The notes beneath the pieces are model-generated. The model was given only the letters and a program-made list of their open reading frames with translations, was not told the DNA's origin and did no database searches. A stretch of 59,745 nt of DNA, from assembly GCA_964422195.1 (NCBI GenBank), contig CAYRAF010000002.1:3513-63257 (forward strand), written 5' to 3'. A program made the position numbers and the translations under genes. The DNA comes from an uncultured Muribaculaceae bacterium. Lineage in GTDB: Bacteria; Bacillota_I; Bacilli_A; RF39; UBA660. Shown piece after piece: positions 3,467 to 51,382 of the stretch (its first letter is position 1; each line of letters opens with the position of its first letter).

Positions 3467-3519
3467 ACTACCACTACCTTCTATTAAATATTAACATAAA
3501 ATATAAAAAAAAGAAATAA

Positions 3520-18118: not shown

Positions 18119-19771
18119 TTAGTCTATTAAACTAATCCTTCTGATTACTTCTTCTTTTCCAAGTAATTTCATTATTTCATATAAATCTGGTGTCATTGAT
18201 CTTGTTGTAATTGCTACTCTAATAACTGTAGATACATCTGCGACATTGCCTTTAAAATTGTTTGGATTTTCTTTGTATTCTTTCATATTTGATGCATATC
18301 CAAGCTCATCACATAATTCTTTTACCTTATTAAACCATGTATCCTTATCATCAGATTCATCATAATACTTATCTAAGTATGTATGACAAATTGTCTTTAT
18401 TTCTTCTTTATCAGTTATATTACCAAAGTCATAAGTTTTATCTTCTTTATCAAATAGTTCTTTATACATATACCATACTTGGTTTTTAACATCAGAATAA
18501 TTAACGAAGTCTTTTCTTGGTTTCTTTTGTTCTCTTTCGATATTAAATAAACTTATAGAGAAATCTTTATACTTTTCTAATAATTCTTTAAACTCAGAGT
18601 CATATTCTTTTGTCCAATTATATACTTCATTATATACCTCTTCTGCTTTCATACGACTTATGATGTTTCTAGATATATTATCTAGTTTTTCTAAGTCAAA
18701 GAATGCCCCAGATGATGACATTTTCTTAGGTGAATACTGAAAATCAGTAAATTCCAAATCAGGATGAGCAGTATGCCACTCTTCATAGTTAGAGTTAATA
18801 ATAGTCATTAATGCTTCAATTACAGCTTTTGTTGGATATCCTTTTTCTTTGTAATAAGTCATAGTTGCTTCTGGATCTTTTCTTTTGCTTATTTTACGTA
18901 CACTTTCTCCTTCTTTTTTTATGATTAAAGGAGTATGAACATATTTAGGAGCTTTATATCCAAAAGCTCTAAATAATTCAATATGCTTAGGTACAGATGA
19001 TAACCATTCTTCTCCTCTCACTACATGAGTTGTTTTCATTAAATAATCATCTACTAAGTGAGCAAAATGATATGTTGGAAGTTTATTACCAGCTTTCATT
19101 ATAACGAAATCTTCATCATTTTCTGGAAGCTCTAATTTACCTTTAACTAAATCTTCATATTTAAACTTTCTATCAAAATTACCTTCTGATTTAAAACGAA
19201 TAACAAAACTTTCACCATTCTTTATTTTTTCTGCTTGTTCATCAAGTGTTAGTTTTCTACAGTGTGCCCATTGTCCATAGTATCCTGTTCTAAACTTTCT
19301 TGCCTCTTGTTTACTTCTCATTTCATCTAAATCTTCTTTAGAACAAAAACATGGATAAGCTCTACCTATCTCTATTAAGTATTTAATAAAAGTATGATAT
19401 ATTTCTTTTCTTTCACTTTGTACATATGGCCCATAATTTCCTATGATTTCTCCATCATTTTCATATTCATCAGGCATAATATTGTAATGTTTTAGTGTAT
19501 CAAAAATAAGTTGTTTAGCTTCCTTCACTTCCCTTTCTTGATCTGTATCTTCAATTCTTAAGAAAAATATTCCATCTGAGTTTTTTGCCATCATATAATC
19601 AATTAAAGATTGAAAGAAACCTCCTAGATGAAAGAATCCTGTTGGAGAAGGTGCAACTCTTGTTACCTTTGCTCCTTCCTTTATATTTCTTGGCTTATAC
19701 ATTTCATCATAATACGCAATATCATGTTTAACCTCTGGAAAGATTAAATCTGCTAAATCTTTATTTGTCAT
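18119..19771 (-). CDS. gltX: glutamate--tRNA ligase (long form)
   Basis: Class I synthetase motifs APSPTGFFHLGG (HIGH) and KISKRK (KMSKS). Preceded by a T-box leader. Confidence 0.85.
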   Translation of the reverse strand: MTNKDLADLIFPEVKHDIAYYDEMYKPRNIKEGAKVTRVAPSPTGFFHLGGFFQSLIDYMMAKNSDGIFFLRIEDTDQEREVKEAKQLIFDTLKHYNIMPDEYENDGEIIGNYGPYVQSERKEIYHTFIKYLIEIGRAYPCFCSKEDLDEMRSKQEARKFRTGYYGQWAHCRKLTLDEQAEKIKNGESFVIRFKSEGNFDRKFKYEDLVKGKLELPENDEDFVIMKAGNKLPTYHFAHLVDDYLMKTTHVVRGEEWLSSVPKHIELFRAFGYKAPKYVHTPLIIKKEGESVRKISKRKDPEATMTYYKEKGYPTKAVIEALMTIINSNYEEWHTAHPDLEFTDFQYSPKKMSSSGAFFDLEKLDNISRNIISRMKAEEVYNEVYNWTKEYDSEFKELLEKYKDFSISLFNIEREQKKPRKDFVNYSDVKNQVWYMYKELFDKEDKTYDFGNITDKEEIKTICHTYLDKYYDESDDKDTWFNKVKELCDELGYASNMKEYKENPNNFKGNVADVSTVIRVAITTRSMTPDLYEIMKLLGKEEVIRRISLID

Positions 19772-19788: not shown

Positions 19789-20005
19789 AAATAAAAAATC
19801 CCCTATCCATAAGGACGAGGATTCGTGGTACCACCTTAATTTATTACTTTTAGTAACCTTAATGCCTTAACGCGGGCAAACGAGATAATCTTTTATCAGA
19901 TATCTTGCTCCAAAGTTTCTTCAAATAGTATACTTATCTATTTACACCTACCATAGACTCTCTATAAAAGTAATCCTATTTTACTCCTCTTCTTCGTTGC
20001 TTTCG
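19789..20005 (-). promoter_or_regulatory. T-box riboswitch leader of gltX, with its own promoter just upstream
   Basis: The reverse strand reads ...AGAGAGUC...UAUUUGAAGAAAC...AAUUAAGGUGGUACCACGAAUCCUCGUCC UUAU GGAUAGGGGAUUUUUU. The T-box core GGUGGUACCACG lies at 19824..19835. A terminator hairpin plus U-run lies at 19792..19820. A TTGCGA-17-TATAAT promoter lies at 20040..20012. Confidence 0.8.
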
Positions 20006-20260
20006 CTTATGATTATATCACTATATCAATCATTTCGCAATTATTTTTACAATTTTTATTAAAAGTATGAATTTTACACATCAATAATTAATAAAACATT
20101 AATTGTTTAATTTTTATATATACAAATATATAAATTTTAGTTATACAACTATTAAATTTTTTAAATTGCTCGTTTGCATACCATTTCTATCTATGATAAT
20201 TTACTTATTGAGCATTCATTTAGGGTGTCTACCAAATCCTTATATGGAGGAGGTGTAATT

Positions 20261-21920: not shown

Positions 21921-22967
21921 TTATTTAACACTGCCTTGATGAAAATATTCTGGATTCTCTGTAGCTATTTTAACCTTTTTCTTTTGATTAGGTGTACCTT
22001 CATTAAAGAAAATAGCATCAACAACTTTATCAAAAGTTTCTTCATCTTTATGATTAAATCTTACTACATTAACTAAACCTGTTTTATCATCAAATGGTGT
22101 TTCTAAATATTCCTTAGTTTTAGCAACAAACTGTTCTTCAGTAATCGCTTTATCTGTACAAAAATATACTGCTTCAGTACGAGCATAACTAGAATCTGGT
22201 TCCATTACAAGAACAAATAGATCTTCATTTTTGTCATTTTTACCTATTGGGTATAAAAGTGACATATATGAAGTTACATTAACATCAATACTTTTTGCTT
22301 TTAATTTCATAATTGGTTCTAAACTTAATAATGCGGCATGTCTTTTAAATATAGACACTTCATCATGATTAGTTGTTGTAGGAGATGTTAAAGTGGATTT
22401 ACTATGCATTCTTGTCTCAGACTCTTGGGCATTATATGTAATTTCTTCTATACCATTTACTAATTCTTGCTCACGAGATAATTCTTTTTGTTTATCTAAT
22501 TTAACCTGCTCATCTCTTATTTTTTTTAACATTTCTATAAAGCCATCATTAATTCTTTTTCTATGACTTTCTATTTCATTAAATGGTTTTAAAAACATCG
22601 AAGCATTTAAATTGTTTTTTATATATTCATAGTAAACATAATCCATATATCCAGCTTCTTTTAAGAAATCATCTTCCATAACGTGAATAGCTTTTCCCGG
22701 AATATTAATATATTCATCACTAATAGCTATTCTTATATTAGATCTTGACATTAATTCTACATATAACTTACCATATCTATCTCTTTTAATATATCCATCA
22801 TTTCTCATCCATGCTAAATCAGGACCAAATTTTCTTTCTATAATAGACATAGCTGCATTTTTAAAAGAAGAATCAATATCATTTAAATCAAATTTATATT
22901 CTTCTAAAGTAATACTATTCTTTTTATAATACTCTCTAATATGATGCATAAAACTACAATTTACCAT
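21921..22967 (-). CDS. hypothetical protein (348 aa)
   Basis: Long ORF. I chose the start at MVNCSFMHH because AGGGGTGA lies 5 nt upstream. No motif recognised. A hairpin terminator AAACCTAATATAGGTTT follows the stop. Confidence 0.55.
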   Translation of the reverse strand: MVNCSFMHHIREYYKKNSITLEEYKFDLNDIDSSFKNAAMSIIERKFGPDLAWMRNDGYIKRDRYGKLYVELMSRSNIRIAISDEYINIPGKAIHVMEDDFLKEAGYMDYVYYEYIKNNLNASMFLKPFNEIESHRKRINDGFIEMLKKIRDEQVKLDKQKELSREQELVNGIEEITYNAQESETRMHSKSTLTSPTTTNHDEVSIFKRHAALLSLEPIMKLKAKSIDVNVTSYMSLLYPIGKNDKNEDLFVLVMEPDSSYARTEAVYFCTDKAITEEQFVAKTKEYLETPFDDKTGLVNVVRFNHKDEETFDKVVDAIFFNEGTPNQKKKVKIATENPEYFHQGSVK

Positions 22968-23059
22968 ATTATCACCCCTTGAACATGACAGATTATACCA
23001 CAAAATACGTTTTTTGTCAATTACAACAAAAAAACTCGTTTAACGAGTTTATTTATAAA

Positions 23060-23268: not shown

Positions 23269-23799
23269 TCAATTATTTTTTATTTTAAATCCTGTAAGCA
23301 ATTTACCAACTTTAAATACTATTTTATCTGCATTTTTAATAGCAATCTTCTTAAATATAGCTTTACCACCTACAGTTAATGCAGAAATGAATGCTGCGAT
23401 AACAATACTGACTAATGTATTATTATAACCTGTTGTTGTTGATAAACTAATAGCAAGTATAGCACCTATTGATCCTGATATAATTCCACAAATATCCCCG
23501 ACTATGTCATTACATAAAGATGATATTTTATTACTATTCTTTACTATAAAGATACATTCTTTTGCTCCTTTAATCTTTTTAGAATTTAAAGCATGAAAAC
23601 TTGATTCTTTTGCTGTGATTGATGCTGTACCTATAATATCAAATAATACACCTAAAGCAATAGTTAATATGAGTATTATAAATAAAACTATATTATTAAA
23701 ATGTGCTGCCATAGTATTAGAAATAGTACTAAATACTATTGACAAAACAAACGTTAATATAAATACTGTTATAATCCAACTATCTTTTTCTTTTTTCAT
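23269..23799 (-). CDS. small four-TM membrane protein, candidate OLE-associated protein A (OapA-like)
   Basis: 176 aa with four hydrophobic helices and an NDIVGD (D-x-x-x-D) motif before TM3. A strong RBS, AGGAGG, is present. The gene has no promoter of its own and lies directly behind the terminator of the large upstream ncRNA. I rate the ORF itself as real at high confidence. The confidence given here is for the OapA assignment. Confidence 0.45.
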   Translation of the reverse strand: MKKEKDSWIITVFILTFVLSIVFSTISNTMAAHFNNIVLFIILILTIALGVLFDIIGTASITAKESSFHALNSKKIKGAKECIFIVKNSNKISSLCNDIVGDICGIISGSIGAILAISLSTTTGYNNTLVSIVIAAFISALTVGGKAIFKKIAIKNADKIVFKVGKLLTGFKIKNN

Positions 23800-23807
23800 T
23801 TTTTCCT

Positions 23808-24317
23808 CCTAAAAACAAAAAACTTTAACAAAAGTTAAAGTTACATACTGTATGGTATATTACAAATCAACTTTACGGCTTTGGTCGAGTTGAATTTCTC
23901 TTTCTGATACTCTAGATTACTCTAAAAGCACTTTCGTTTTAAATCAGAAAACTAACTGTCGCCAGGATAGTTACTCGATTACCACTTAGTCCGCACTTTA
24001 ATACTTGCAATATATACACGCTAGAGGCTTTCCCTAACATAAGTGACTATTCTTATATGCTTTTGCATTTGATATTTCATTAATTAAAAATTAAATTCCA
24101 ACCAAACACTCACATCATGTACGTTATTATATTATTACTAGTGACGTGATAAAAGGAATTATCAGCCGCATGCCGTTGCGGTTATCCTTAAATCTAAAAT
24201 CCTACTTACACCCCAACTTGGGCAGAAGAAGCATAAGCAAGAAGTGTCATTCGACAATTGGTAGATTTTTAGCCCTACCTTCAAATAGTATAATGACTAG
24301 CATAATGCACCACACAT
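23808..24317 (-). ncRNA. large structured non-coding RNA of about 510 nt. Best guess is OLE RNA, but the class is unconfirmed
   Basis: The region is bounded by a consensus promoter and a hairpin+U terminator. It has no credible ORF. G+C-rich patches stand out from the AT-rich spacers, and it contains many local hairpins, for example GGUAG-GGCUAAAAAU-CUACC, CCGCA-ACGGCA-UGCGG and UCAACU-...-AGUUGA. Confidence 0.55.
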
Positions 24318-24323
24318 GTATGA

Positions 24324-24352
24324 ATTATAGCATATTTTTGAGTATATGTCAA
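24324..24352 (-). promoter_or_regulatory. sigmaA-type promoter TTGACA-17 nt-TATAAT driving the large ncRNA
   Basis: The reverse strand reads TTGACA tatactcaaaaatatgc TATAAT. Both hexamers are perfect consensus with a 17-nt spacer, and the promoter starts 9 nt after the dfx stop. Confidence 0.65.
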
Positions 24353-24360
24353 CTTGTCAG

Positions 24361-24738
24361 CTACTCTACTGTAGTTTCCCAAAGCCCATGTTTATTACAA
24401 TATGCATATAATTTACCAGTATTTACATCATCAAATACACCTGTTGCCTCAATTCCTGGTTCAAAATAAATATATTCTTCACGACTTTCTGTTATGAAAC
24501 AAATCCACTCTATATAATGATCATCATCCATTACATGGTTAACTTTTACTTCTAATTTGTTTTCTTTTCTTTCATAAGTTGGCACATGTTTTTCAAAGGC
24601 TGCATCTGTGCTATTAGGTTTTACTTCTTTCATAACTTCACCACAACAAGTAATACCACAATCATCACATGTACAGTCATTTAAAACTTTTACTAATGCA
24701 CCACATTTACTACATTTCTTTATAACTAATTCTTTCAT
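24361..24738 (-). CDS. dfx: desulfoferrodoxin (superoxide reductase, 2Fe type)
   Basis: N-terminal desulforedoxin-like cysteines CSKCG...CC, plus a neelaredoxin-domain block EKHVP...H...EW...C.KHGLW. Confidence 0.85.
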   Translation of the reverse strand: MKELVIKKCSKCGALVKVLNDCTCDDCGITCCGEVMKEVKPNSTDAAFEKHVPTYERKENKLEVKVNHVMDDDHYIEWICFITESREEYIYFEPGIEATGVFDDVNTGKLYAYCNKHGLWETTVE

Positions 24739-24784: not shown

Positions 24785-25383
24785 CTACTTGTAGTTTTCA
24801 TTAGCATAAGAAAAATTTGCTACTTCAAAAAAGTTATCTAAATATTCTTTTTTATTGTTTTTATAATTTAAATAATATGCATGTTCCCACATATCTACAG
24901 TAAATAGCGGGGTATACCCAAACATATAAGGACTATCTTGATTTGCCGTATTTATGATATCTATACTTTTATCTTTTTTCTCTACTAAAAATGTATATCC
25001 TGATCCTTTTATACTTAAAGCCATATTTATAAATTCTTCTTTAAATTTTTCAAAAGAAGAATACTTATTCTTAATAACTTGTAGTAAATCTCCTTTTACT
25101 TCTTCTTATCATGAATATCAATACTTTTCCAATATAAATCATGATTTACTACTCCACCTAGATTAAATAATATATCATTTCTATCTTCAATATTAAAGCT
25201 TTCCATTTTCTTATATATTTCTTCTGGTGGATAGGAAAAAGAAAAGTTGTTTTTAATAAGTAACTTATTTAAATTGTTTAAGTAGTTTCTTTCATGTTTA
25301 TTATGATGTAATCCTAATATATGTGTATCAATATAAGGCTCTAAATCTTGATATAAAAAAGGTAATGGTTTTAATGTATACAT
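24785..25383 (-). pseudogene. sodA: Fe/Mn superoxide dismutase interrupted by a single frameshift
   Basis: The N-terminal domain ORF (LPFLYQDLEPYID...HHNKH...GGVVNHDLYW) stops at 25096. The C-terminal domain (KGDLLQVIKNKYSSFEKFKEEFI..GSGYTFLV...DMWEHAYYL) continues in the -1 frame from about 25097. The junction lies in the run aagaagaagtaaaagg. Confidence 0.75.
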
Positions 25384-31793: not shown

Positions 31794-32144
31794 TTAATCC
31801 TTTGCTTTAAAGAACAAAGAAAATATAAACGTAAAGATTATTGCCGCAGTAATTCCTGAAGCAGTTAAATTAAACATACCTGTAAGTAAGCCTATAAAAC
31901 CATATTTTTCTGCTTGAGCAAGTGCTCCATGTATGAGTAAATGTCCAAAACTAGTAATAGGTACCATAGCTCCTCCACCAACATATAAAACTATTTTATC
32001 ATATATATTAAATATATCTAAGAATGCTCCTACACATACAAATAAACTTGTTATATGCCCTGCGGTAAGTTTTGTGTTATCTAATATTATCTGTCCCAAC
32101 AAGCAAACAAAACCTGCGAATAAGAATGAATATAAATATATCAT
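31794..32144 (-). CDS. spoVAE: stage V sporulation protein AE (SpoVAEb-type)
   Basis: 116-aa polytopic membrane protein immediately after spoVAD. Paralogous to SpoVAC. Confidence 0.8.
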   Translation of the reverse strand: MIYLYSFLFAGFVCLLGQIILDNTKLTAGHITSLFVCVGAFLDIFNIYDKIVLYVGGGAMVPITSFGHLLIHGALAQAEKYGFIGLLTGMFNLTASGITAAIIFTFIFSLFFKAKD

Positions 32145-33136
32145 TTTACCATCTCCAAACTAATAGCATGAGCAGTAGCTAAAATATTTTGTTTTTGATA
32201 AACCATTGTAGGTGAAAACAAAGCTCCTGTAGCTACCAAAAGAACTCGTTTTAGTTTCCCCTCTTCCATCTTTTTTAATATATAACTATAATTTACTAAA
32301 GCACTACAAACAGGTCCTGACCCACCAGCTAAAACTTCCTTTTGTTCTTCTAAATCATAAAGCATAGTACCACAATCATCATAATTCTTATATATATCCA
32401 TCTTATATTCTCCTTGCATATAATCTACTAATATTTTTTTACCATATTGTCCTAAATCACCTGTCAATATTAAATCATAATAATCAGGATTTCTTTTCAA
32501 ATCACTTAAATGTCTATAAATTGTATCAGCTGCTGCTGGGGCCATAACTGCTCCCATATTAAAAGGATCTTTAACACCCATATCTATTATTTTACCAATA
32601 GTAGAACTTTCTACTCTTATATTGCTTTTTTCTCTTGATAGTAAAGCACTTGCTCCACCAGTCGATGTAAATGTCGCAGTTGATGGTTTAGGCGCCCCAT
32701 ACTCTGTAGGATTTCTAAATTGTTTTTCCGATGACATATTGTGTGAACTTACTGAAGTAATACAATTATCTATTTGTTTTGCCTCTATGAAGTTAGATGC
32801 TATAATCATTCCCTCAATACTCGTAGAACATGCACCATAAATTCCTAAGAATGGTAAGTTATATTTTTCAAGTCCATAACTGGATGAAGTTATTTGATTA
32901 AGTAAATCTCCAGAAATAAGTAAATCTATATTGTTTTTTTGTTTATTTGCTTTATCAAGAAGTATATCAACACTTTCTTCTAATAATTTTGCTTCTGCTT
33001 GTTCCCAAGATTTTTCTCCATTATACAAATCGTTGTAACTTTTATCAAAAAAACTTCCAAGTGGTCCTTTTTTTTCATAAGGACCTGCTACTGTTGCTGT
33101 ATTATTTATATATACATTATTATATTTAAATGTCAT
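32141..33136 (-). CDS. spoVAD: stage V sporulation protein AD
   Basis: Thiolase-like fold blocks (GIYGACSTS, GGSGPVCSA). Occupies the position between spoVAC and spoVAE. Confidence 0.85.
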   Translation of the reverse strand: MTFKYNNVYINNTATVAGPYEKKGPLGSFFDKSYNDLYNGEKSWEQAEAKLLEESVDILLDKANKQKNNIDLLISGDLLNQITSSSYGLEKYNLPFLGIYGACSTSIEGMIIASNFIEAKQIDNCITSVSSHNMSSEKQFRNPTEYGAPKPSTATFTSTGGASALLSREKSNIRVESSTIGKIIDMGVKDPFNMGAVMAPAAADTIYRHLSDLKRNPDYYDLILTGDLGQYGKKILVDYMQGEYKMDIYKNYDDCGTMLYDLEEQKEVLAGGSGPVCSALVNYSYILKKMEEGKLKRVLLVATGALFSPTMVYQKQNILATAHAISLEMVK

Positions 33137-33137
33137 A

Positions 33138-33578
33138 TTAACCTCCCATTATTAAAAATCTTATCATACCAAATATCCAAGCTGATACTACACCATATAG
33201 AATAACAGATCCAGATAGTTTAAAAATATTACTTCCTATTCCAAATATTGGACCTTCTGTTTTATATTCCATACCAGAACTCATCATTGAATGAGCAAAT
33301 CCTGTTATAGGAATAATAAGTCCGCATCTACAGAAAGTAACCCATTTGTCAAAAAAGCCTAATGCCGTAAACAAACAAGCAAAGAATATTAAAGTAACTG
33401 TTCCAAATATAGCAGCATCAGAAGCTGAAATATGCAAAAAATAAGAATATATATCAATTAACCCTTGTTCTATTACACCAACAATTCCTCCTGTTATAAA
33501 AGCAATAATACCATTTTTTATACGTTGTTCTTTCGGTTTATGCCTATCTACCAATTCGTTATAATCTTTTATTCTCAC
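33138..33578 (-). CDS. spoVAC: stage V sporulation protein AC
   Basis: 146-aa membrane protein with an N-terminal Y..LV..H.PK block and a conserved ITGFAHSM block. It is the first gene of the spoVAC-AD-AE triad. Confidence 0.85.
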   Translation of the reverse strand: MRIKDYNELVDRHKPKEQRIKNGIIAFITGGIVGVIEQGLIDIYSYFLHISASDAAIFGTVTLIFFACLFTALGFFDKWVTFCRCGLIIPITGFAHSMMSSGMEYKTEGPIFGIGSNIFKLSGSVILYGVVSAWIFGMIRFLIMGG

Positions 33579-33638
33579 ACTATCACCGTCCTAAAACTAT
33601 TATGGTAATAATTAGTAATTTTTATACAAAAGAAAAAA

Positions 33639-34133
33639 CTACTTTACGTAGTTCTGCATATTTGTACTCATTGATAGTTTTTTTGTTTTTGCTTTAAGTC
33701 CAGCTTTTTTAGCAGTAACACTTTCAAGTTTTTCTCTAAGCATTGCTTCTTCATTATCACAATCGTTTAATAATAATTCTGTTTCTATTGGTTCCCATAA
33801 AGTAAGTAATTCTTCTTTTCTAAGATAAGTTATATCTTTATAATCTATATTATGAGCTTCTAGGCAACTAGTAAAATCACTTTTACCTTTAGAACGACCA
33901 TATGGTTCATAAAGTGTTGCAATAGGTTCATCAGTAAAAACATCACAACGTTGTATTCTAGCAGCAGTATGACTAAATGCTCCACATGTAAGATCTATTC
34001 CATAACATAAATGATTGTTTACTATTCTCAAGTATCTAATATCATGAAACTCCTCACTTTTTTCTTTAGCAATTTTTACCTCTAAATCTGTTAATTCTTT
34101 ATATGAAAGCTTACTTAAATCAATTTTTTCCAT
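33639..34133 (-). CDS. hypothetical protein (164 aa), downstream partner of the PBECR-like gene
   Basis: ORF with an RBS and no recognisable motif. Its C-terminus is a Lys-rich helix. Confidence 0.5.
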   Translation of the reverse strand: MEKIDLSKLSYKELTDLEVKIAKEKSEEFHDIRYLRIVNNHLCYGIDLTCGAFSHTAARIQRCDVFTDEPIATLYEPYGRSKGKSDFTSCLEAHNIDYKDITYLRKEELLTLWEPIETELLLNDCDNEEAMLREKLESVTAKKAGLKAKTKKLSMSTNMQNYVK

Positions 34134-34215
34134 AGTATATACCTCCTTGACTACCTATTATATATATAAACTTTTTAAAAGTAAAGAAAAAAGATATTTT
34201 AATTATCAAAAATTT

Positions 34216-34599
34216 CTAAATCTTCATTTTTATACTTTTTATAGTTTCTTTTTTCTTTCTATTGTTTATTTTAGATTCTTTTACAGGATAAAAACTTTTT
34301 ACTTTTAATTCTTTACCATCATCAACTCTGACTGCGACTAAAATATATTCGTTTAATCTTTTATAATATTCTAATCCTTTCTTATTTTTATCATAAAACA
34401 CATAATCTGGTTTTCTTATTATTATACTTAACATTCTAACTGTATAATAGTAATCCTTTTTCCTTTTATATTGATGTAAATGTCTAGTTTTAGCATGAAT
34501 AATAGCACTATCATATATTACTATCTTTTTATCCTTATGAGATTGAATATCCCACTTTTTTATAATTTCATCACTAATAATACCTAATACTTTCTTCAT
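34216..34599 (-). CDS. small protein resembling PBECR (phage Barnase-EndoU-ColicinE5/D-RelE-like) nuclease family
   Basis: The layout I.IYDSAIIHAKTRH ... IIRKPDYVFYD ... LVAVRV ... matches my recollection of these small toxin-like nucleases (I..H...H, II..PDY, LVAVR). This was not verified by a search. Confidence 0.4.
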   Translation of the reverse strand: MKKVLGIISDEIIKKWDIQSHKDKKIVIYDSAIIHAKTRHLHQYKRKKDYYYTVRMLSIIIRKPDYVFYDKNKKGLEYYKRLNEYILVAVRVDDGKELKVKSFYPVKESKINNRKKKETIKSIKMKI

Positions 34600-34618
34600 T
34601 TATCACTTCCTTTAGAAT

Positions 34619-34797
34619 TAAAAAAAGCTTATACATAGAGTATAAACTTTTAATATTTGCAATAAGCCATGCATCACTTTGGCATCTCATCAGATATATT
34701 CATATCCTACACTTAAGACTTTATGTCCGCGATAGTCGATGTCTTTCTATCCTTTACTGCTATAATATATTATGCAACTAAATATAATCACACATGC
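34619..34797 (-). ncRNA. unclassified structured RNA / terminator-containing leader of about 180 nt
   Basis: A promoter TTGACT-17-TACAAT lies at 34832..34804. G+C-rich hairpins include GAUAG-11 nt-CUAUC and GGAUAU-GAAU-AUAUCU. A strong terminator, AAGUUUAUAC-UCUAU-GUAUAAGCUU followed by U7, lies at 34649..34619 and ends 10 nt before the RBS of the PBECR-like gene. Confidence 0.5.
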
Positions 34798-34855
34798 ATT
34801 AGTATTGTACTATTATTTTTATATAAAGTCAATTCAAAACATTTATTTATACTTT

Positions 34856-35518
34856 TTATGTTGATATATCATAAGTTAATCCTTTTTTTAATTTTTGTAA
34901 TATTTTTGTTTCTTTTCTAGAAACTTGCACTTGTGAAAGTCCAAGTTTGTTTGATGTCTCACTTTGAGTTAAATCATTAAAGTATCTTTCTTCTACAAGT
35001 TTCTTTTCTTCATCTGTTAAATTACTTAGTTCTGTTTTTAAGTCTTGTATATCTTCATTATAAGCTTTTTCTTCTGTAAATACCTTATTATATAATAGTT
35101 CTTCATCATCATCATTTTCATAATTTAAACTCATAATAAACTGATTAGCTTCCTCAACTTCCATTAACTTTTTTTCATCTATCTCTAAAAACAATGATAA
35201 TTCCGCTGTTGTTGGAGCACGCATTAATCTTTGAGATAATACTTCTTTTGCTTTATCTATTGATTGGTTTAGTTTTATATATTCACGAGATATTTTGATA
35301 TTCTTATCTTCTCTAACAAACTTTTTAACTTCACCTAATATAGAAAAATAGGCATATGTTGAAAATTTAACGTTTGCATTTTCATCAAAGTTTTCATGAG
35401 CTTTTAATAATCCTAGTATACCTGCCTGATATAAATCATCTTTATCATAAAATGAAGTATATTTTTTTATTACTGAATATATTAATTTTTCATAAACTAA
35501 AATATCGTCATTAGTCAT
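34856..35518 (-). CDS. sigF: sporulation sigma factor, SigF-like
   Basis: Blocks shared with B. subtilis SigF: FSTYA, GE(V/I)..F(V/I)R(E/D)D, (I/V)SR, RAPT, YENDDD and LGLSQVQVSR.E.KIL. At 220 aa its N-terminus is shorter than usual. Confidence 0.8.
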   Translation of the reverse strand: MTNDDILVYEKLIYSVIKKYTSFYDKDDLYQAGILGLLKAHENFDENANVKFSTYAYFSILGEVKKFVREDKNIKISREYIKLNQSIDKAKEVLSQRLMRAPTTAELSLFLEIDEKKLMEVEEANQFIMSLNYENDDDEELLYNKVFTEEKAYNEDIQDLKTELSNLTDEEKKLVEERYFNDLTQSETSNKLGLSQVQVSRKETKILQKLKKGLTYDIST

Positions 35519-35530
35519 AATATCACCCTT

Positions 35531-35866
35531 TTATATATTTATAATATTAAATGCTTGTAATTCATTGTCGCTTTTACTTAAGTTTTTAAAATATTTTTGT
35601 TTTATATTAGAATTATTATTTATTCCACATATTACAACTTTACCATCTACTTTAGCAATATATCTATATTCATTCATAATTAACTCAATACCAGTATTAT
35701 CAATGCTTTCTAAATTACTTAAGTTAATTACTAAATATTTTAATCCTTTACTTTCAACTAAGTTTGTTACTTCATTTTTAAAATATTTAGAAGTATTTTT
35801 ATCTAGATTACCAAACAACCTAATAAATAATATACCTCTTCTTACTTCCATATTTATATCTAACAA
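35531..35866 (-). CDS. spoIIAA: STAS-domain anti-sigma-factor antagonist (SpoIIAA-like) lacking the canonical phospho-serine
   Basis: The segment LKYLVINLSNLESIDNTGIELIMNEY...GKVVICGI aligns with B. subtilis [26 protein letters not shown]...GEMVVCAI. The DSSG motif is replaced by DNTG. Confidence 0.75.
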   Translation of the reverse strand: MLDINMEVRRGILFIRLFGNLDKNTSKYFKNEVTNLVESKGLKYLVINLSNLESIDNTGIELIMNEYRYIAKVDGKVVICGINNNSNIKQKYFKNLSKSDNELQAFNIINI

Positions 35867-35944: not shown

Positions 35945-37297
35945 CTAAATTTTTAAGACCCTCTTAATAATCATAATTAATGATAATGACATTACAGAAA
36001 AAACATCATTATTTTTATGTTCTTTATCTTTTTTTGCTTCTTGTTTATTGCCCTTAATAACACTTTCTTCAGTATCTATAGATATTTTTTCTAATTCTTT
36101 AATACGACTATTATTATTAATTCTATAACTTTCCATCATTTCTTCCAAATCTAAAGTAATATAAATAGAAACTACAAAATCATTATATGAATAAGTTATT
36201 TTATATAACCCATTTTTATTTATATTAATACTATCCTTTATCTTAATTTTACTTTTTTCTATATTGGTATCATTAATTACATCATATAAATTATAATCCC
36301 TTGATTTAATAACATAATTATCTTTAAAATTAATCATATATCTGTTCTTTACCTTATAATAAACTCTATATTTATTTTCATCTTTTATATATCCATCTTT
36401 TTCTACATAATAATCATCTAAATAATATCTTTCTTCCTTATAATACTTATATTTTATATCTTTATATGAGTATAAGCTATATGAATCTATTAATTGTAAT
36501 GACGGATCATCTATTTTCTCTTCTTTTGTAATAACGTTTTCATCATAATAAATATCTTTTAAATAATCCTTTAATAAAATATTTAATTTATAGCCATTAT
36601 CCTCATTATTATATATATTAGCATTCATAATAATATCAATATAATTTTTTAATTTATTCTTATTATTATCTAAAATATCTACACTAAAACTAGTATTATC
36701 AGTACCATAATTATCTGTTAAATATATTTCTATATTTATATTTTCTATATCATAATTATCTTTTAAATCTATAGTAAAATCCTGGCTTTTTGTTACTTCC
36801 ATAAAACCATTATTTAAAAAATTATCACTTATTTTTTCTTTATTTAAACAGTTTCTACAAATAAGTTCATAATCTATTTTTTCTTTATTATTAAAAATTT
36901 TTATCTCTAAAAATCTTAGTATATCTCTTGAACCATTGATATTATTAAAATTTAAATATCTTATTGGTAATCTATTTGCATATTCATATATAGTTTTAGT
37001 TTGTATAACTCTCCCTTTTTTTTCTTCTGGTTTTTCTTTACTCCATGAAGAGTATTCAGTTTCTATTGATTCTCCACTTTTATATGGATATTCATCTATA
37101 TTCTCATCTTCAATATAGTATTTATCACTGTAAATATTTTCTTTTCTATAAAATTTATATCTATATTCTTCTTCATAATTAATATTTGGTTTCGAAGATA
37201 AATATCTAATTCTTTCATTTCCATAATATGTAGCAGCATTAACCATATTTGGAATTATTATATTTAATATGATAAATAAACTAATTAATTTTTTCAT
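35945..37297 (-). CDS. hypothetical secreted protein with C-terminal membrane anchor
   Basis: N-terminal signal peptide (LFIILNIIIPNMVNA), a Tyr/Asn/Lys-rich body and a C-terminal hydrophobic helix. Confidence 0.55.
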   Translation of the reverse strand: MKKLISLFIILNIIIPNMVNAATYYGNERIRYLSSKPNINYEEEYRYKFYRKENIYSDKYYIEDENIDEYPYKSGESIETEYSSWSKEKPEEKKGRVIQTKTIYEYANRLPIRYLNFNNINGSRDILRFLEIKIFNNKEKIDYELICRNCLNKEKISDNFLNNGFMEVTKSQDFTIDLKDNYDIENINIEIYLTDNYGTDNTSFSVDILDNNKNKLKNYIDIIMNANIYNNEDNGYKLNILLKDYLKDIYYDENVITKEEKIDDPSLQLIDSYSLYSYKDIKYKYYKEERYYLDDYYVEKDGYIKDENKYRVYYKVKNRYMINFKDNYVIKSRDYNLYDVINDTNIEKSKIKIKDSININKNGLYKITYSYNDFVVSIYITLDLEEMMESYRINNNSRIKELEKISIDTEESVIKGNKQEAKKDKEHKNNDVFSVMSLSLIMIIKRVLKI

Positions 37298-50837: not shown

Positions 50838-51119
50838 TTATCTAAATAAATTAGCATGACTACCAGTCCTAGTTAATATTAATTCCAAAGTATTATTTTT
50901 AATTTTATATATAAGTAACCAATCTGGTTCTATATGACATTCTCTTAATCCTTCATATTTTCCATGTAAGGTATGATCTTTATAAGATATATCTAATATT
51001 TCCCTATTTGCAAGCATATCAACAACCTTTTCCAATTTTGTAATATCATTACCTTGTTTTCTTATCTTTACATAATCTTTCTTATATTGTTTAGTAACAA
51101 CTATATCTAATCTGTCCAT
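50838..51119 (-). CDS. yafQ: type II toxin, YafQ/RelE-family mRNA interferase
   Basis: Motifs KQYKKDYVK...L...YKDH.L.G.....ECHI.PDWLLIY......L.L.RTGSH. The C-terminal catalytic histidine region is present. Overlaps the antitoxin stop. Confidence 0.8.
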   Translation of the reverse strand: MDRLDIVVTKQYKKDYVKIRKQGNDITKLEKVVDMLANREILDISYKDHTLHGKYEGLRECHIEPDWLLIYKIKNNTLELILTRTGSHANLFR

Positions 51120-51382
51120 TTTTCTGCATCCTCAAATAACTCTTTTGTTGATTTATATCTAACAGCATCTTCACCAATTGAATAAGCTTCTTCTATGGCT
51201 TTTTTTGTCTCTTCATTATAATCATCAAAGCCAAGTTTAAAAGGAAGGCCATTTTCAATACATACTCTTTTTAAAAACATATTAACTGCGACACTCATAT
51301 TAATTCCTAAATCAGCAAGTATTTCTTCTGCTTGTAGTTTAATATCACTATTTACTCTTACATGTAATACAACATCTTTCAT
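51107..51382 (-). CDS. dinJ: type II antitoxin, RelB/DinJ family
   Basis: N-terminal ribbon-helix-helix (V.VR.D...K..AE.IL..LG...S.A...FL). Positioned upstream of yafQ. Confidence 0.8.
   Translation of the reverse strand: MKDVVLHVRVNSDIKLQAEEILADLGINMSVAVNMFLKRVCIENGLPFKLGFDDYNEETKKAIEEAYSIGEDAVRYKSTKELFEDAEKWTD

Follow-up and report, generated by a model that had tools for sequence, protein, structure and literature searches.

A shortened OLE RNA and its partner gene oapA in a low-G+C Bacilli bacterium of the gut or rumen

The locus described here raises the question of what a spacer of about 560 nt may encode when it contains no credible open reading frame (ORF). The spacer is located in a 59,745-nt stretch of DNA (the window; positions 3,513 to 63,257 of contig CAYRAF010000002.1) and separates the dfx ORF (24361..24738 on the minus strand, with a Pfam Desulfoferrodox match) from an ORF for a 176-aa membrane protein. 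The answer is that it encodes a shortened but intact OLE RNA; next to it, on the 3' side, is the gene of OapA, its membrane partner. A preliminary description made from the sequence alone had proposed an ole-oapA-type locus at this position, and this is borne out by an Rfam OLE match over the full model, by covariation and by the hallmarks of OapA. The spacer itself had been read correctly: its sole long ORF, a 107-aa frame at 24146..24469 on the plus strand that had been dismissed as junk, is antisense to the conserved structured RNA and is spurious, and the raised G+C content that had been noticed amounts to 34% for the OLE RNA versus approximately 25% for the whole window.

The RNA was identified by scanning the whole window against the families of Rfam 15. 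OLE (RF01071) matches 24329..23836 on the minus strand with 245.8 bits (E 2.6e-68), about five times the gathering score of 50, and the match spans the full model (positions 1-616). Besides tRNA and T-box this is the single strong match in the window, and the start of oapA lies 37 nt past its Rfam 3' boundary. The sequence blocks that are conserved among OLE RNAs, namely GUGGUGCA..CUAGUCA, CUAAAAAU, GCCCA, AAYGGCAU, GUGAGUG..UGAAA..UGCAAAAG, GGACUAAGUGGYAAUC, GACCAAAGCCGUAAA and ACCA, are all found in the window and are invariant or nearly invariant in an alignment of relatives. A BLASTN search returned no plasmid match for the OLE RNA, and a mobile origin is therefore not indicated.

Relatives of OapA were found in 80 GTDB species genomes, and the closest of these, at 50-78% identity, are encoded by metagenome-assembled genomes (MAGs) titled Erysipelotrichaceae, Bacilli, Tenericutes and Mycoplasma sp. 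CAG:472. Twelve close-relative loci were scanned with Rfam, and 11 of them contain an OLE match of 482-504 nt and 204-252 bits, so that in 11 MAG loci of Bacilli a compact OLE precedes an oapA homologue; a nhmmer profile recovers the compact form (465-504 nt) in about 35 related MAG loci. Mean column identity in the 11-sequence OLE alignment is 78%. An alignment of relatives in search of covariation had been suggested in the preliminary description, and the outcome is clear: RNAalifold predicts 128 pairs from the 11 relatives, 61 of which show compensatory changes. The Rfam consensus structure, which is independent of these sequences, was transferred onto the same alignment, where it is 88.5% paired; sliding the 3' partners by 1-3 columns lowers this value to 39-45%. 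Double, compensatory changes occur in 56 of the 109 pairs of the Rfam structure, and in 500 shuffles not one of the five measures used was attained. Conservation and covariation together thus show that the compact OLE RNA is real, folded and under selection, and no decaying remnant.

The RNA is bracketed by transcription signals (Table 1). Its promoter is a sigma-70-type TTGACA-17-TATAAT sequence with a TG extension at 24352..24324 on the minus strand, and a near-consensus promoter (typically TTGACA-17-TGnTATAAT) is present in nearly all compact-OLE loci. In the relatives 6-11 nt separate the end of the -10 hexamer from the conserved GUGGUGC, which places the P1 helix at the extreme 5' end of the transcript; in the window the transcription start is inferred to lie near 24317-24319. 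At the 3' side a terminator-like hairpin, AACUUUAAC-UUUU-GUUAAAGUU at 23842..23821, is followed by the U-run UUUUGUUUUU at 23820..23811. The hairpin has a folding energy of -7.5 kcal/mol (z = -3.6), none of 200 shuffles folds as well, and it was missed by a generic terminator scan because that scan demands at least 3 G-C pairs. A hairpin and U-run are located no more than about 20 nt past the P1 3' strand in 22 of 25 distinct relatives, with stem sequences that vary by sub-clade, and in the window as well as in most relatives the U-run leads straight into the ribosome-binding site of oapA. Stable and conserved in position, the element has the properties of a Rho-independent terminator, and termination is predicted to occur here, giving a predicted OLE transcript of about 505 nt from ~24317 to ~23811. 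The promoter scan found no minus-strand promoter-like site between the ole promoter and the start codon of oapA. The preliminary description had recognised this arrangement: the perfect promoter, the hairpin and U-run (placed at 23842..23808) next to AGGAGG and the lack of a promoter belonging to the downstream gene were all confirmed.

Table 1. Positions of the features of the ole-oapA locus in the window
Feature	Position	Strand	Evidence or remark
-35 hexamer TTGACA of the ole promoter	24347..24352	-	12/12 consensus match, 17-nt spacer
-10 hexamer TATAAT, preceded by TG (extended -10)	24324..24329	-	Promoter scan and relatives
OLE RNA (RF01071), compact form, 494 nt by Rfam boundaries	23836..24329	-	Rfam match, covariation
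5' strands of P1, P2 and P3/P3.1 together	24283..24314	-	
P1, 5' strand	24309..24314	-	Partner 23851..23856; RNAalifold, 11 relatives
P2, 5' strand	24297..24304	-	Partner 24017..24024; RNAalifold, 11 relatives
P3/P3.1, 5' strand	24283..24295	-	Partner 24038..24052; RNAalifold, 11 relatives
P4 hairpin with invariant A-rich loop GCUAAAAAUC	24260..24279	-	Rfam, alignment
P5/P5.1 stem with GCCCA loop	24200..24242	-	Rfam, RNAalifold; loop bases G, C, C invariant
P6/P6.1 stem with loop CAACGGCAUG (ACGGCAU)	24148..24194	-	Rfam, helices 3 and 4
32-nt A/U-rich linker in place of P7 and P8	24116..24147	-	Rfam alignment versus full-length OLE
P9, truncated	24057..24115	-	Rfam alignment, helices 5-7
P10 hairpin AGGGAAAGCCU	24025..24035	-	Rfam alignment
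3' domain P12-P15	23857..24013	-	Rfam alignment, helices 9-14
P13 with GCGA tetraloop and one-nucleotide bulge	23951..23971	-	Within the P12-P15 domain
P14/P14.1 with GUAA tetraloop (P14.1)	23901..23950	-	Within the P12-P15 domain
Intrinsic-terminator-like hairpin, 9 bp, UUUU loop, then UUUUGUUUUU	23811..23842	-	Folding energy, position in relatives
oapA ribosome-binding site AGGAGG	23805..23810	-	Abuts the U-run directly; ATG at 23799
oapA, 176-aa four-helix membrane protein (OLE-associated protein A)	23269..23799	-	ORF, Pfam, hydropathy, fold, homologues
Codons for D98-I-V-G-D102 (DxxxD)	23494..23508	-	Alignment

The window RNA retains P1-P6, the base of P9, P10 and P12-P15 and is devoid of P7, P8, the P9 arch and P11, the missing elements being defined by comparison with the full-length OLE at locus L059 (595 nt, 523 bits). 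The preliminary description was therefore right about the identity of the RNA and wrong about its form, as it had assumed the standard OLE of about 600 nt; with 494 nt and without P7, P8 and a long P9 arch the RNA is not a full-length OLE. P3 and P3.1 together amount to 12 bp, and compensatory changes are seen at 6 of these pairs among the 11 relatives. P4 (helix 1 in the analysis of the Rfam structure) is 100% paired with compensatory changes in 3 of its 6 pairs, and its A-rich loop has been identified as a contact for RNA-RNA dimerisation (PMC12265935). The UGCC of the P5.1 loop and the GGCA of the P6.1 loop are complementary when read from the sequence, in correspondence with the published P5.1/P6.1 kissing-loop contact (PMC12265935). 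In full-length OLE P7 and P8 occupy about 80 nt as two hairpins (model positions 198-241 and 249-277), whereas in the window P6 is joined to P9 by an unstructured linker of 32 nt (24-36 nt in relatives). Measured against the model, segments of 44, 36 and 38 positions have shrunk to 12, 9 and 1 nt. P9 still has its basal stem (GUGAGUG...UGAAA...UGCAAAAG), and of its distal arch a variable tip of 25 nt is left at 24075..24099, while P11, which follows P10 in full-length OLE, is missing.

The tetraloop and bulge of P13 are the determinants of OapB binding (PMC7936274), and a GNRA-capped P13 is kept in the window RNA and in eight other relatives. In the compact OLEs of L003 (1948-2429) and L005 (5393-5885) truncation has left ACUAGAUAUCUAGU and GCUAGCAAUAGU of the P13 stem, and the one-nucleotide bulge needed for the binding of OapB has been lost.

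OapA is a 176-aa protein with four hydrophobic segments according to its hydropathy (residues 5-33, 29-64, 98-122 and 125-151). The preliminary description had pointed to four hydrophobic helices and an NDIVGD motif, and the latter indeed occupies residues 97-102. The extended motif CNDIVGDI is invariant in 14 OapA sequences, including those of Clostridia proteins encoded beside full-length OLE, and Fernando and Breaker 2024 give the DxxxD motif that it contains as a marker of OapA (PMC11332333). A TVGGKA motif is conserved as well and the window protein contains no proline. A homology and structure search, also proposed at the outset, showed that the protein scores 26.1 bits against Pfam CNNM (PF01595) over residues 41-171, below the cut-off of 28.4, and ends at residue 176; OapA is published as the next-best cluster on the CNNM hidden Markov model with just such a sub-threshold score. 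NCBIfam holds no family for OapA, the Pfam scan found neither CBS nor CorC domains, and a sequence search of the PDB with OapA gave nothing at E<=1. An AlphaFold model based on 30 homologues is all-helical with a mean pLDDT of 85, and the six best Foldseek matches of this model in the PDB are four chains of the archaeal CNNM protein MtCorB (7M1T, 7M1U) and two entries of the CorC transmembrane domain (7CFF, 7CFG), with probabilities of 0.9-1.0 and TM-scores of 0.42-0.49. The same structural relative has been reported for OapA by the Breaker laboratory. Homologues in Clostridia MAGs with 37-44% identity are encoded directly downstream of full-length OLE RNAs (595-668 nt, 360-528 bits), which links the window protein with canonical OapA through both homology and synteny. 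The 176-aa protein is OapA.

The position of the hairpin between the RNA and the ribosome-binding site invites the proposal that the RNA serves chiefly as a leader acting in cis, for instance a Mg2+-sensing attenuator whose terminator gates a CorB-like Mg2+ transporter. The persistence of the hairpin in the relatives, the CNNM/CorB-like character of the downstream protein and the Mg2+ sensitivity of OLE knock-outs in H. halodurans (PMC12265935) all speak for such a leader, yet it is very unlikely. When 23750..24400 was rescanned with Rfam at a permissive E<=10, M-box (ykoK) gave no match at all, and the matches besides OLE were at chance level (Hairpin ribozyme, SNORD51, GOLLD at 11.8 bits and Fluoride at 11.8 bits). 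The M-box-like strings in the preliminary description are accounted for by the OLE structure, as GUUAGGGAAAGCCUC is the P10 hairpin with its flanks and CCAUA (ACCAUA) the 3' strand of P1. Its suggestion of a CNNM/CorB-like membrane protein behind a Mg2+-sensing element holds in the distant, CNNM-like sense that is published for OapA; the CBS and CorC domains are absent and there is no match to a Mg2+-sensing element. The hairpin is wholly missing in the CAG:472 group, where a 30-nt spacer alone separates ole from oapA, and the conserved structure stops about 10 nt before the hairpin and offers no alternative pairing with it. Furthermore, 1-3.5 kb of unrelated genes are inserted between ole and oapA in L003, L004 and L077 (L003:2430-6000, L004:3350-5328), and L005 has two terminators plus a separate oapA promoter. 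The coupling of ole and oapA is thus not obligatory, and published work has OLE acting in trans as an abundant ribonucleoprotein (RNP).

A decaying, non-functional OLE remnant in a reduced genome would explain why the RNA falls about 120 nt short of the consensus and why it scores about half as high as full-length examples. The same deletions are however common to about 35 species-level loci at the column identity given above, the near-consensus promoter and oapA are kept, and P7 and P8 make no dimer contacts in the cryo-electron microscopy (cryo-EM) models (PMC12265935). The covariation effectively refutes decay, which is left with a highly improbable standing. Even less probable, to the point of being negligible, is a different large RNA class such as ROOL, GOLLD or raiA that merely resembles OLE, a possibility raised in the preliminary description on account of the nearby tRNA genes, which often accompany ROOL. 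The covariance-model scan that had been proposed for this case refutes it: in the permissive scan ROOL and raiA gave no match and GOLLD scored 11.8 bits versus a threshold of 150, whereas OLE was recovered over the full model (E 2.8e-70).

Among known systems the closest are the 'variant 2' OLE RNAs, which according to Fernando and Breaker 2024 (PMC11332333) lack P7 and P8 entirely, are common in RF39 and are found in reduced-genome uncultured gut Bacilli that are largely devoid of OapB and OapC. The window RNA likewise is without P7 and P8 and keeps the highly conserved OLE nucleotides, its host is likewise an uncultured low-G+C gut/rumen Bacilli with oapA retained, and its 245.8 bits lie within the 235-310 band of that paper, although the former value was obtained with the Rfam model and the latter with another model. 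In addition the window RNA lacks the distal P9 arch and P11 and keeps the GNRA tetraloop and bulge of P13. By its sequence the window RNA fits variant 2. The locus hence belongs to a family and a sub-type that have already been described, and nothing puts it outside published knowledge.

The full-length OLE RNAs of H. halodurans, Clostridium acetobutylicum and C. botulinum share with the window RNA P1-P6, the basal P9, P10 and P12-P15, the A-rich loop of P4, the P5.1/P6.1 kissing loops, the 12-bp P3/P3.1 and an oapA gene directly downstream. The window RNA is about 110-170 nt shorter than these through the loss of P7, P8, the P9 arch and P11, its k-turn is doubtful, and it is located outside the large ispA/dxs-type operon with a promoter and terminator of its own. 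Such a promoter and/or terminator is also found at some full-length Clostridia OLE loci, and therefore the bracket is not special to the compact clade. The window protein shares with the OapA family four transmembrane helices, DxxxD, basic loops, the lack of proline, a distant CNNM-like fold and its place downstream of ole; with 176 aa it ranks among the shorter members of the family (about 170-210 aa) and lacks the basic N-terminal extension of several Clostridia homologues. The CNNM exporters MpfA, CorB and CorC share the fold of the membrane domain (7M1T, 7M1U, 7CFF) and the weak Pfam CNNM match, but unlike them OapA has four helices instead of three, carries DxxxD where they have the CNNM signature, is devoid of the conserved proline and scores below the Pfam threshold. 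OapA is not a member of this family and no MpfA/CorB transporter, because it lacks the CBS-pair and CorC_HlyC domains.

The locus is thus very probably an ole-oapA module that encodes the OLE RNP of an uncultured low-G+C (~25%) gut/rumen bacterium of the Bacillota (class Bacilli), with the RNA in a natural shortened form. It is proposed that transcription starts near 24317 at the sigma-70-type promoter and that most transcripts would stop at the terminator to give an abundant RNA of about 505 nt, whereas a minority would read through and supply the oapA message, as oapA is without a promoter of its own in the window. By analogy with the published particles, two OLE RNAs would dimerise via the P4 loop and the P5.1/P6.1 kissing loops, and an OapA dimer would bind the RNA and hold it at or across the membrane via the 12-bp P3 helix. 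In the window lineage the sequence elements predicted to make the dimer contacts of P4 and P5.1/P6.1 are intact, as is the 12-bp P3. The particle may then aid tolerance of Mg2+, alcohol, cold and energy stress or poor carbon sources, and may partly replace the Mg2+ exporter MpfA.

Several points weigh against this picture. The P9 loops are a fourth dimer contact (Lyon and Breaker 2025, PMC12265935) and the corresponding kissing-loop contact has apparently been lost in the window RNA, so that the dimer seen in the published structures may not carry over in every respect. In H. halodurans OapC and bS21 bind a k-turn; its counterpart, sought in J4a/5-P5-J5/6 of the window RNA, is not clearly preserved, being at best a non-canonical version in which a 4-nt bulge is combined with a weak, non-canonical helix, and the G-A tandem is not conserved across the clade. 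The functional role is borrowed from the genetics of H. halodurans and the cryo-EM of Clostridium RNAs and may hold for the window lineage by analogy. OapB, OapC and MpfA are absent among the 47 window ORFs according to Pfam, a statement that is limited to the roughly 60 kb of genome in view, and no KOW or L7Ae proteins were found among the window ORFs scanned. The dfx ORF ends 8 nt from the -35 box with no terminator in between, which makes longer transcripts entering OLE possible, and part of the OLE RNA may come from these. The transcription start, the termination efficiency and the read-through are all predictions from the DNA.

The hairpin and U-run conserved between ole and oapA could also act as a regulated attenuator, which is an unlikely option for which their position is the evidence. 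Were it true, folding of the OLE 3' domain, Mg2+ or OapA bound to the nascent RNA would set the read-through into oapA, and the RNP would control the dose of its own membrane partner. Akin to this, and likewise unlikely, is the idea that the lineage might carry a naturally minimal OLE particle of RNA and OapA only, without P7, P8, the P9 arch and P11.

Among the non-coding RNAs of bacteria OLE is one of the largest and is still enigmatic in its biochemical role, and recent structures suggest that it spans the membrane. The ole-oapA locus of the window is no new kind of element; it is a clean and well-bracketed example of shortened OLE in which promoter, 494-nt core, terminator and oapA follow one another. 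A comparison of the parts that evolution has kept (P1-P6, the basal P9, P10 and P12-P15, including the 12-bp P3 and the dimer loops of P4 and P5.1/P6.1) with those it has dropped (P7, P8, the P9 arch and P11) helps in the choice of minimal constructs for structural or genetic work. Annotation gains from it as well, as a spurious 107-aa ORF is removed and a seemingly empty 560-nt spacer is explained.

The order nitroreductase, split superoxide dismutase, dfx, OLE, oapA, tRNA-Gln and tRNA-Thr is repeated in the same-species metagenome contigs L081 and L082. The dfx/tRNA-Gln/Thr neighbourhood is confined to such same-species contigs, and L001, L003, L004 and L005 have other neighbours, which leaves oapA as the only conserved partner of ole among the loci compared. 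A functional link to oxidative-stress genes is therefore unsupported, since the dfx and tRNA neighbours are absent in the nearest relatives. The preliminary description was correct in calling the neighbourhood non-canonical, but the context is species-specific and there is no evidence that it matters. In the CAG:472-like sub-clade a divergent tRNA-Trp gene is situated just upstream of the OLE promoter (L006:3554-3627, L008:5083-5156, L016:5223-5296), unlike the tRNA genes of the window, which are downstream. The inserts between ole and oapA in L003, L004 and L077 encode a DUF285 surface protein, a PDZ-domain protein and unassigned ORFs, and oapA of L004 has an extended -10 promoter of its own.

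The Fe/Mn superoxide dismutase gene upstream of dfx (24785..25383 on the minus strand) is split into an N-terminal domain at 25096..25383 and a C-terminal domain at 24785..25024 in different frames. As the independent metagenome contigs L081 and L082 show the same split, it is a genuine frameshift or pseudogene instead of an error in assembly. The tRNA-Gln/tRNA-Thr pair and a terminator at 23050..23032 are closely followed by a 360-aa ORF (21921..23003, minus strand) with no Pfam or NCBIfam match and a perfect TTGACA-17-TATAAT promoter of its own at 23020..22992. A T-box leader at 19808..20006 (minus strand, 124.8 bits) precedes the gene of a class-I Glu/Gln-tRNA synthetase at 18119..19771.

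Further away, a type II toxin-antitoxin pair (50838..51382, minus strand) adjoins the ribosomal-protein operon region, and its YafQ-family toxin (50838..51119) overlaps the RelB/DinJ-type antitoxin (51107..51382). A sporulation cluster at 31794..35866 on the minus strand comprises spoVAC, spoVAD and spoVAEB (31794..33578), a gene for a sigF-like sigma factor (34856..35518) and a STAS/SpoIIAA-like gene (35531..35866), and on the strength of its spoVA and sigF-like genes the 25% G+C host appears to form spores. Inserted within the cluster is an ORF for a PBECR3 barnase/EndoU-type nuclease (34216..34599). Directly upstream of the STAS/sigF genes is a 450-aa ORF (35945..37297, minus strand) that has no Pfam match and occupies the most A+T-rich kilobase of the window, with a G+C content of 17.8%.

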